A stretch of DNA of 64,000 nt from the NCBI RefSeq assembly GCF_054482595.1, contig NZ_CM137008.1. One strand, given 5' to 3'. The translations under genes were made by a program, and so were the position numbers. The notes under the pieces are model-generated. The model did no database searches, was not told where the DNA came from, and was given only the letters and a program-made list of their open reading frames with translations. Shown here piece by piece: positions 18,885 to 21,616 of the stretch (positions are counted from its first letter, which is position 1; every line of letters begins with the position of its first letter).

Positions 18885-19394
18885 AGTGTATTCCTTATTG
18901 TTGCTTAGTTAGGGTAGTCACTATATTTGCGACTGAGCTGGTCGCTATTTTTAACCAGGCTGGAAAATTGAGTCAATATATCGAAAGCGGTAGTCGGCGG
19001 GTGTAAGTATGTAATGATGATGCTGCACTGGTGTTGAATATTATTCACGCCAAATTTTCCTTATTGAGTAACGTCGTCGCAAGTGGCCTCAATGATTTTA
19101 GACCATTATCAGAGGTACGGGGTGGCTGGGAGAGATTTAGTGCTGTGGAATATTGTGGTGCTGATGAATATTTATATCGCGGATTGGTAGAGAAAAATCT
19201 TATTTCATGCACTATTTTTGCAAATATTTCTATATGGGAAGCGTGTTTGTTATGGATTAATTCATAAAGAAATGCATTTGGGTGTTGGCTTGAAGAGTCG
19301 CTGGTTGATGTTGTTGTGCCAGGAGGGGCAGGGTAAGGTGCTGTATCGATATGCTTCGGCAATTGCGTGTGCCGCAGATGGAGATGAAATGTCA

Positions 19395-19433
19395 ATAAAA
19401 AAGCCTGAGTTCGATGAGGGACGAACTCAGGCT
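19395..19433 (-). terminator. Rho-independent terminator of the porin gene
   Basis: agcctgagttcg-(loop)-cgaactcaggct hairpin; on the minus strand it is followed by a T-run (A-run 19397..19402 on the plus strand). Confidence 0.6.
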
Positions 19434-19475
19434 AGTGTTCAGTTTTACAGTAACACGCCGCGGCGCGTTGGCTGA

Positions 19476-20663
19476 TTAGAACTGGTAGACTAAGCCCACA
19501 GCCACGATATCATCGGTAGCGATGCCGTTTTCTTTGTAGAAGTCGTCGTCGTTGTCCAGCAGGTTGATTTTGTAATCAACATAAGTGGACATGTTTTTGT
19601 TGAAGTAGTAGGTCATACCAATATCAACATATTTAACCAGATCTTTGTTGGTGTAATGATGATTACCCTGGCTGTCGAAGTTATCACTATTTACACCGCC
19701 TAAATCCTTACCTTTAGATTGCAGGTAAGCGATGGACGGGCGCAGGCCAAAGTCGAACTGATACTGAGCAACAACTTCAAAGTTTTGGGTTTTGTTAGCG
19801 ATGGCATCAGCATCACCGTAACCAGTCATGTTACGGGTTTCAGCATACATAGCTGCTAAGTAAACGTTATTAGCGTCATATTTAGCACCAACGGTCCATG
19901 CTTCTGCTGTTTCACCGCCAGCAGTTGCATCGAAGCGATCTCCATAACGAATGTTATGCAAACCTTTGTGAACCTGATTGTCAGTACGGTCAGAATTAGA
20001 ATATGCAGCACCCAGACTTAAACCGAAGTCGAAGTCATAGGAAGTGGACATACCGAAGCCGTCGCCGTTCTCTTTAGCTAACTTACGGCCATTACCGTTA
20101 CCAGAACCTTCCTGACCGAATAATCCATCATCTTCATTATTACCCTGATATTGCAAAGCAAAGTTCAAGCCATCGACCTGACCAAAGAAGCCATTGTTAC
20201 GGTAGGTTGCAACACCATTAGCACGACCGTTCATGAAGTTGTCAGCGCCAGCATAGGTATCGCCACCAAATTCTGGCAGCATATCGGTCCATGCTTCTAC
20301 GTCATATACGACACCGTAGTTACGACCATAGTCGAAAGTACCATTCTGACCAAAGCCTAAACCTGCAAATGCCAGACGCGTTGCGGTATTACCCTTGTCG
20401 CTTTCAGGACCGTTTGCGCCAATGTTAAATTCCCACTGACCATAACCAGTGAATTGATCAGCGATCTGAGTTTCACCTTTGAAACCGATACGGGCATATG
20501 ACATGTCGCCATCGCTGCCAGAATCATCAGAGAAGTAGTGCAGACCCACTACTTTTCCGTACAAATCCAGTTTATTACCATCTTTATTATAGACTTCAGC
20601 CGCATTTGCTGCGCCAGCAACTAATAATGCCGGGACCAGCATTGCCAGAACTTTTCTTTTCAT
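19476..20663 (-). CDS. yedS: General-diffusion porin (OmpC/OmpF family), intact
   Basis: Signal peptide [37 protein letters not shown] start and terminal F typical of porins; position next to hchA matches yedS; the ORF-track start at 20693 is an upstream extension. Confidence 0.8.
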
Positions 20664-21292
20664 TATGTATTCCCTTGTGATTATAATCTTCATGAATATA
20701 TCAATAAGTGCCGTTATCCAAAAAAAAGCACATTTGGATACTATTCTATGAAGTTCATTTTATTTTAAAGATTACATGTAACAAATGTATTTAAAAGATT
20801 TCAAAATGTTTCTAATCTATTTAATATAATTTAGAATTATGAATTCTAAATATAAATATTCATGAAAATTATAAATGTATATCAATATGTTATGAGTTGA
20901 GCGGAAGCATAGGGGGTATCAATGATTGTTGCGCCAAACGGCTGGTGTGATCACGCGCACATTAATGAAGGCATAAAAAAAAGCCGGCATCATGCCGGCC
21001 CAAAAAATATAAACAAGACGATAAAAGGCTAATAACGGAGGCATCATGACACAGAAAAATAAAAAGGTATAATTGTATTCAGTGCTAATATATTGATTAA
21101 ATGAATTAATAAAGCCGATCTCAAAGATAAATAAAATCGCTCAAAACGATTTTTCCTGTATTCACTGCCGTTGCGCAAAAATTATCTATTTGTTCAAAAA
21201 ATGAGTGAGTCTTGACTGGCTCATCCAATGTGGAAAAATGTGACTTTTATCACATAATAGTACTAAGTCTGAATTTTCCGGGTTATCTCAAA

Positions 21293-21616
21293 ATGGAATA
21301 CGGTTCGACAAAGATGGAAGAGAGACTCTCTCGCAGCCCTGGTGGCAAACTGGCTTTGTGGGCTTTCTATACATGGTGTGGCTATTTCGTCTGGGCAATG
21401 GCGCGTTACATCTGGGCAATGGCGCGTTACATCTGGGTGATGAGCCGGATCCCCGATGCCCCCGTGTCGGGATTTGAAAGCGATTTAGGCTCTACCGCGG
21501 GAAAGTGGTTAGGGGCACTGGTCGGATTTTTATTTATGGCTCTGGTCGGGGCATTGTTAGGCAGCATTGCCTGGTACACCCGACCTCGTCCCGCACGTAG
21601 CAGACGCTATGAATAA
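21293..21616 (+). CDS. yedR: Small inner-membrane protein YedR; carries a 21-bp in-frame tandem duplication
   Basis: ORF containing MEYGSTKMEERLSRSPGGKLALWAFYTWCGYFVWAMARYIWAMARYIWVMSRIP...; start codon uncertain (ORF track begins at 21212). Confidence 0.7.
   Translation: MEYGSTKMEERLSRSPGGKLALWAFYTWCGYFVWAMARYIWAMARYIWVMSRIPDAPVSGFESDLGSTAGKWLGALVGFLFMALVGALLGSIAWYTRPRPARSRRYE

Follow-up and report, generated by a model that had tools for sequence, protein, structure and literature searches.

The small RNA gene rseX and an intact yedS porin gene between hchA and drpB

The stretch of DNA considered here, hereafter the window, is 64,000 nucleotides long and contains on its minus strand an intact OmpC-family general porin gene (19476..20663), which is bounded upstream by a divergent neighbour, drpB, also called yedR (21293..21616, plus strand; NCBIfam DrpB_YedR, 147 bits). 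The intergenic region between them (20664..21292, 629 bp) has a GC content of 30.2% as compared with 49.7% for the whole window. An earlier note on this DNA had described an uninterrupted porin reading frame, about 600 bp of AT-rich DNA up to yedR and, within this AT-rich DNA, a GC palindrome enclosed by A and T runs. All three descriptions hold, the palindrome being found within 2 nt of where the note had placed it. With high confidence, the locus can be read as two known genes in tandem on the minus strand, rseX, whose terminator is the palindrome, then the intact yedS about 310 bp downstream. As a separate observation, the drpB copy of the window carries a 21-bp tandem duplication (21391..21432), which is a rare allele.

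The yedS porin gene

As delimited mechanically, the open reading frame spans 19476..20693 on the minus strand. The biological start of yedS is the ATG at 20663, which is preceded 7 nt on its 5' side by AAGGGA and opens a typical signal peptide. From this codon down to 19476 the frame encodes 395 amino acids followed by a TAA stop codon and contains no internal stop. The porin had also been credited with a terminator of its own, and the terminator scan bears this out with a Rho-independent terminator at 19392..19433 on the minus strand, composed of a 12-bp stem, an 8-nt loop and a U-run (TTTTT). The strong, terminator-like hairpin with its TTTTT spans 19433..19402 and lies 43 nt past the stop codon.

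The protein scores 542.7 bits against the NCBIfam OmpC subfamily model NF007841, for which the cut-off is 484, and falls under the equivalog cut-offs for OmpF and PhoE. Homologues have the Pfam domain PF00267. Among the solved porins of the PDB, it matches OmpK37 from end to end (6v78, E = 2.6e-145) and, also from end to end, OmpC with E values of about 1e-124 (2j1n, 6.7e-124). A Sec signal peptide, the loop-3 constriction motif PEFGGD and a C-terminal phenylalanine (...VGLVYQF) are all present. The end-to-end matches to solved porins suggest that YedS folds as a 16-stranded trimeric beta-barrel. E. coli EC-JS426 has exactly the same protein as the window (WP_047656155.1); with respect to E. 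coli strain ECCRA-119, the window protein differs by one residue, I238T.

RefSeq labels this gene 'porin OmpC', a name that arises because the HMM behind it works at the subfamily level. The true OmpC, that is the orthologue of K-12 b2215, was ruled out by position: the window gene is flanked by hchA and, at its other end, by drpB-yedJ-dcm-vsr. The order hprS-hchA-porin-rseX-drpB-yedJ-dcm-vsr is found in the closest relatives of the window as well as in K-12. In K-12, ompC adjoins micF and rcsD instead, and its product is 66% identical to the window YedS. The window porin is thus an intact allele of yedS and not ompC.

At the matching position, the annotation of K-12 MG1655 gives yedS (b4496) as a pseudogene, in agreement with the statement in the earlier note that the K-12 gene is broken. 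Alignment locates two lesions: codon 162 reads TAG in place of CAG (Q162*), and codon 221 has lost 1 nt. All other insertions and deletions relative to the window copy are multiples of three. Over residues 1-161 the window and K-12 reading frames encode the same protein, without a difference.

The state of yedS was then compared in 12 E. coli genomes, ten of them taken at even steps down a similarity ranking and the other two being the closest relatives of the window. The gene is intact in eight, with a length ranging from 352 to 404 amino acids, and is disrupted in the remaining four, each time by a different lesion. These are the nonsense codon with frameshift of the K-12 type, a frameshift caused by a 1-nt deletion at codon 202 in O157:H7, a 3' truncation in a third genome and, in a fourth, an insertion of ISEc53 that also carries a clbS-like gene. 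An intact yedS is therefore the majority state in E. coli and no peculiarity of the window strain. We did not find this repeated and independent inactivation of yedS described.

In the same way, many intact alleles of 395 amino acids are present among the best 120 matches in the protein database. Throughout these 120 matches the alleles are from Escherichia and Shigella, and none is from Salmonella. At least 1,000 contigs carry one and the same allele, and the names given to database homologues include 'yedS' and 'outer membrane protein S1'. Alleles of the locus share 59-95% amino acid identity with the window protein. Their differences cluster in segments of the size of loops, away from the conserved barrel core and L3 motif, and the signal peptide does not vary.

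The palindrome and the small RNA RseX

Read along the window, the palindrome consists of A8 (20975..20982), GCCGGCAtcaTGCCGGC (20983..20999), CC and A6 (21002..21007). It forms the 3' part of rseX, the 91-nt gene of the Hfq-binding small RNA RseX (20975..21065, minus strand). Scanned against Rfam at E <= 1, the segment 18800..21700 gave one significant match, rseX at 21065..20976 on the minus strand (RF01401, E = 2e-13; 96.7 bits, with a gathering score of 50), covering all model positions (1-94 of 94). The palindrome is not a chance structure, because the 91 nt to which it belongs match the rseX model at this score. A match to RyhB on the rseX terminator stayed below threshold (23 bits against 55) and was rejected as a generic resemblance between terminators.

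The K-12 record agrees with this identification, as it annotates the ncRNA gene rseX (b4603) between drpB and yedS. The two sequences are 97% identical over 171 nt and the gene ends coincide. Compared with the RseX known from K-12 (b4603, RF01401; Chen 2002, Douchin 2006), the window copy occupies the same locus on the same strand, has the same length of 91 nt and the same terminator, and differs by two substitutions only, at nt 9 (A to U) and nt 26 (U to C). Both positions also vary in the alignment of Escherichia species and no functional difference from the K-12 RNA is expected. Every test applied assigns the small RNA of the window to the RseX family.

The terminator scan places the Rho-independent terminator of RseX at 20975..21001 on the minus strand, with 9 pairs (6 of them G-C), a 3-nt loop and a T8 tail. 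The hairpin appears in both the minimum free energy and the centroid folds and is invariant in the cross-lineage alignment. The GC palindrome GCCGGCAtcaTGCCGGC is thus the terminator stem of RseX, followed on the minus strand by U8. The earlier note had offered two readings of it, a bidirectional terminator or the 3' end of a small transcript, and the former would imply that it also stops plus-strand transcripts leaving the porin region, or antisense ones that run toward drpB. Being a perfect palindrome, it could form a hairpin on either strand, and on the plus strand an A-run lies 5' of this hairpin. However, the plus-strand hairpin is followed by CCAAAAAATA, which is no U-tract, and the scan calls a terminator on the minus strand only. 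Moreover, no plus-strand gene ends at the palindrome; the start of drpB lies another 290 bp away, with a separate promoter mapped near the start codon (PMC7648144). Termination in both directions is accordingly most improbable. A U-run follows the hairpin in the minus-strand orientation alone; a small transcript therefore ends at the palindrome, and this transcript is RseX.

A putative sigma-70 promoter of rseX is placed at 21072..21100 on the minus strand, with TTAATC (21100..21095) and TACAAT (21077..21072) separated by a spacer of 17 nt and a start at 21065. Its hexamers were positioned by eye relative to the annotated 5' end in K-12. The -10 pattern TACNAT is kept in the alignment of Escherichia species. 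For a sigma-70 promoter of rseX, support from 5' RACE is reported in PMC8313858, which cites Douchin 2006 for it.

The gene is present in 4876 of 5426 complete E. coli genomes; RefSeq does not annotate it outside K-12, the annotation reading 'none' under every match in these genomes. A DNA-pattern scan with one genome per species matched only Escherichia and Citrobacter, in six lineages: E. albertii, E. whittamii, two further Escherichia species, the divergent E. coli E69 and Citrobacter amalonaticus. In all six, the rseX copy exceeds the Rfam threshold and lies between a divergent drpB and, some 310 bp further downstream, an intact, full-length porin gene of the same orientation.

The constant neighbourhood raises the possibility that RseX is a dedicated repressor of the adjoining gene, pairing with the translation-initiation region of yedS. 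Duplex energies were computed over -45..+25 of each target and compared with 500 shuffles of that target. MicF and ompF, the positive control, gave z = -4.6 in this test, and RseX gave z = -2.7 with ompC and z = -1.95 with ompA. With yedS, the value for RseX was z = -0.69, and 23% of the shuffles were at least as good. As the pairing stands out for ompC and ompA but not for yedS, RseX probably does not target its neighbour. A dedicated repressor would fit with the tandem arrangement kept from Escherichia to Citrobacter, and also with a long loose duplex at -26..+58 of yedS (z = -2.0). The latter, however, comes from a crude test of low power (210-nt target, shuffled small RNA), in which the positive controls ompC and ompA were themselves non-significant, and the better-controlled test argues against it. 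Repression of yedS by RseX is for these reasons unlikely.

The 2013 study by Warner is said to have reported a control of yedS by MicF. In the test described above, no pairing of MicF with yedS was detected at -45..+25 (z = +0.3); the pairing may lie outside this segment, or the control may be indirect.

A regulator of porins encoded beside a porin gene that it does not target has counterparts in micF/ompC and micC/ompN. MicF represses ompF and, in K-12, micF adjoins ompC; MicC represses ompC and its gene reportedly adjoins ompN (Chen et al. 2004). These two are divergent pairs with a common regulatory region, whereas rseX and yedS point the same way, with a terminator and about 310 bp between them.

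The AT-rich region and the promoter block of yedS

The AT-rich DNA is made of three parts, with a GC content ranging from 22 to 35%: the promoter region of rseX, a variable spacer and a near-invariant block of 169 bp adjoining yedS. Over 200 bp, the lowest GC content of the intergenic region is 19.5% (20700..20899). The spacer (20833..20974, minus strand) covers the 142 bp from the terminator of rseX to the conserved block, and its identity is 63-82% within Escherichia and 38% with respect to Citrobacter. The block itself (20664..20832, minus strand) lies directly beside the ATG, is expected to hold the yedS promoter and 5'UTR and has a GC content of 21.9%. It is 96-98% identical in the five other Escherichia lineages and 84% identical in Citrobacter amalonaticus. 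It is thereby better conserved than the coding sequence of yedS, for which the identity is 84-94% within Escherichia and 68% with respect to Citrobacter. The block was found in 4879 of 5426 complete E. coli genomes, and in 4877 of these 4879 it is at least 95% identical; around 10% of E. coli genomes are without the region comprising rseX and the promoter. We did not find this strong constraint on a 169-bp block beside a hypervariable coding sequence described.

The block is weakly colinear with the promoter region of ompC. Two candidate -10 boxes of yedS can be pointed out on the minus strand, TAGAAT (20748..20743) and GATAAC (20718..20713). A promoter scan of the region gave 8 promoter-like matches compared with 7.7 in shuffles, which is the level of chance. 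As promoter-like matches occur at chance level in DNA this rich in AT, no promoter is assigned to yedS.

The region upstream of the porin had been put forward as a place to look for sites of the OmpR type. Five OmpR-like repeats phased by 10 bp are found in the block at 20763..20812 on the minus strand (GAAACATTTT GAAATCTTTT AAATACATTT GTTACATGTA ATCTTTAAAA), and they are almost invariant in the alignment, as far as Citrobacter. The 11-mer ACATTTTGAAA is common to these repeats and to the C1 OmpR site of ompC. It occurs once in the window for 0.07 expected, and at least one match to it was obtained in 7 of 100 shuffles. In porin promoters activated by OmpR, tandem sites of 20 bp, made of 10-bp half-sites of the GTTACA/GAAACA type, precede a weak -35. 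The repeats resemble such half-sites, and this resemblance, together with their conservation, is only suggestive of OmpR binding at 20763..20812.

The conservation also bears on whether the open frame of yedS could be a recent remnant no longer under selection, functionally dead and so far free of lesions. The locus does decay repeatedly, with independent lesions in four of the 12 sampled genomes, and the tenth or so of genomes devoid of the rseX and promoter region would point in the same direction. On the other hand, the other eight E. coli genomes, like each of the six further lineages including Citrobacter, have the gene full-length and intact. Variation falls in loop-sized segments and spares the barrel core and the L3 motif, and the promoter block is under strong constraint. 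In addition, YedS reportedly serves a clinical isolate as a functioning porin (Warner 2013, as related in PMC4048246). A dead remnant is hence very unlikely.

Probable silencing of the locus and its meaning

In K-12, the AT-rich stretch is silenced by H-NS, the DNA for which occupancy and derepression are reported being described as rseX 'and surrounding areas' in PMC8313858. Silencing of RseX by H-NS has been known since 2021. In the wild type, RseX is undetectable; it appears in hns mutants and is strongest in the hns stpA double mutant, and the DNA around rseX is derepressed along with it (PMC8313858, PMC7648144). According to the same two papers, which cite Douchin 2006, RseX represses ompA and ompC via Hfq.

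The ompS1 gene of Salmonella offers a parallel. It encodes a quiescent porin that is silenced by H-NS and StpA and activated both by OmpR and by LeuO, the latter as an H-NS antagonist (PMC4264507, PMC4393010). Like yedS, it specifies a minor porin of the OmpC family in Salmonella enterica and has a long AT-rich 5' regulatory region. The two genes are likened by name, in PMC2731931, which gives yedS as '(ompS1)', and in a database entry that calls an E. coli homologue 'outer membrane protein S1'. Because the K-12 stretch is silenced by H-NS (PMC8313858) and ompS1 is quiescent (PMC4264507), the expression of yedS in ordinary conditions is probably low.

A clinical E. coli isolate without OmpC and OmpF is reported to make use of a functional YedS, which bears on its carbapenem resistance, and a role of YedS and MarR in this resistance has been reported as well (Warner 2013, by way of PMC4048246 and PMC11267920). 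From what the citing papers relate, the clinical YedS (AAC 57:1935) resembles that of the window in being an intact OmpC-like porin at the hchA-drpB locus. The two proteins may differ in permeability, the alleles of this locus being 59-95% identical at the amino acid level.

Beyond the identity, anatomy, conservation and intactness of rseX and yedS, which are observed in the DNA itself, we infer for the window strain an OmpR control and a joint derepression of the two genes. The AT-rich tract would act as a control region silenced by H-NS and shared by the two tandem genes, with the terminator of RseX between them. H-NS and StpA would coat this DNA, so that RseX and YedS would both be quiescent in ordinary culture. 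The terminator ends the RseX transcript and shields the downstream yedS from read-through. Once produced, RseX would base-pair together with Hfq with the mRNAs of ompC and ompA and lower the amount of these major outer-membrane proteins. In parallel, relief of silencing would allow YedS to be made and to form a trimeric diffusion pore for small hydrophilic solutes, including carbapenems.

More speculatively, rseX and yedS might constitute one co-silenced 'porin exchange' module, by which major surface proteins would be replaced by a strain-specific porin. This reading is possible, though we consider it doubtful. If LeuO or OmpR, for example, relieved the silencing by H-NS and StpA, both genes would be switched on; RseX would remove OmpC and OmpA and would spare YedS, whose mRNA it apparently does not pair with. 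The promoter, the 5'UTR and the part encoding the signal peptide would be held near-invariant across the genus, and the barrel loops would be swapped by recombination, giving alleles that are only 59-95% identical.

The finding of an intact yedS next to RseX is correct but not new: the literature already covers RseX (from 2002-2006), a functional yedS in clinical isolates of E. coli (from 2013), where the two genes lie, the pseudogene of K-12, the silencing by H-NS and the relevance to antibiotics. The 'ompC' label given by RefSeq/PGAP and the absence of an rseX annotation outside K-12 mean that automated readers can mistake the locus for an unannotated one. A near-invariant 169-bp block beside a hypervariable coding sequence makes a convenient target for studying how a quiescent porin is controlled. 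An intact yedS leaves a strain with a general porin in reserve, which can matter when OmpC and OmpF are lost, for the entry of carbapenems as well as for recognition by phages or by the immune system. If the two genes did act as an exchange module, it would be functional in the strains with an intact yedS and could alter their susceptibility to phages, immune defences and antibiotics.

Conserved sequence upstream of yedS

The coding sequence of the porin gene yedS (19476..20663, minus strand) is directly preceded on its 5' side by a 169-bp block (20664..20832, minus strand) that, by sequence comparison, is more conserved than the coding sequence itself. Identity over this block reached 96-98% across Escherichia species and 84% in Citrobacter, and 4,877 E. 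coli genomes carry it at 95% identity or more. Candidate OmpR-like repeats with a 10-bp phasing were recognized inside it by resemblance. The block matched no Rfam family, and nothing is annotated within its counterpart in the K-12 record. Ten codons 5' of the real porin start (stretch 20693..20664, minus strand) lies an in-frame ATG that is devoid of a Shine-Dalgarno sequence and that is kept, with an open frame, as far as Citrobacter. It is because of this upstream ATG that 405-aa versions of the porin are found in some databases (entries P0010, P0018 and P0031).

Further upstream, the plus strand bears at 21046..21073 a site that resembles a sigma-70 promoter and is close to the consensus (ATGACA, 16 nt, TATAAT; 11 of 12 consensus matches); it overlaps the 5' end of the small RNA gene rseX in antisense and points towards drpB. 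Of its two boxes, the -35 falls within the invariant RseX 5' sequence and the -10 shares sequence with the promoter region of rseX. The drpB promoter has been mapped elsewhere, near the drpB start codon (PMC7648144). Judged from its sequence, the plus-strand site may be a by-product of AT-rich, partly palindromic DNA, or an antisense promoter.

The neighbouring drpB gene and the hchA-yedS interval

DrpB is a small cell-division protein. Within its gene (21293..21616, plus strand), a 21-bp sequence, CTGGGCAATGGCGCGTTACAT, is perfectly duplicated in tandem (21391..21432), which repeats the heptapeptide WAMARYI within the protein's hydrophobic N-terminal stretch. When the window drpB was compared with 4,910 drpB-bearing E. 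coli genomes, identity of at least 99% was obtained in only eight of them and of 95-99% in one; three genomes, including that of strain EC-JS426, were 100% identical. All the others showed at most 94% identity, as expected for copies without the 21-bp repeat. At the sequence level, this distribution points to the duplication.

On the other side of yedS, the 591-bp interval that separates it from hchA (18885..19475) displays a strongly positive GC skew on the plus strand, from 0.2 to 0.47, and presumably contains the hchA promoter region. This interval had no Rfam match and bears no annotated feature in the K-12 record; a short hypothetical protein is annotated there in one RefSeq genome (locus L017).

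Annotation, inactivation and allelic diversity of yedS

Matches to rseX were found in 4,876 RefSeq E. coli genomes. For each of the eight matches listed, spaced along the ranking of these genomes, no annotated feature lay beneath; rseX is annotated in the K-12 reference record. PGAP names yedS 'ompC', and this name together with the missing rseX annotation can make the locus appear novel.

At least four independent events have inactivated yedS. In O157:H7 F7386 (L012) the gene lacks one nucleotide at codon 202, and in the K-12-like 8FA (L013) it carries the K-12 lesion, a nonsense codon plus a frameshift. In Z1323CEC0017 (L016) it is truncated at its 3' end, the porin remnant adjoining hprS with no hchA annotated in between, and in isolate 30821_1#88 (L021) it is interrupted by an ISEc53 insertion that brings along a ClbS/DfsB-family gene. 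F7386 also carries a frameshift flag on its drpB gene.

At the E. coli loci L014-L020, the yedS porin alleles measure 352-404 aa and share 59-86% amino-acid identity with the window allele, the lowest values lying below the 66% identity of the window porin to K-12 OmpC. Loop 3 of some alleles reads VEWGGDS instead of PEFGGD. The signal peptide and the upstream block are identical across these divergent alleles, which suggests, from sequence, that yedS alleles are swapped by recombination (allelic replacement) 3' of a fixed 5' end.
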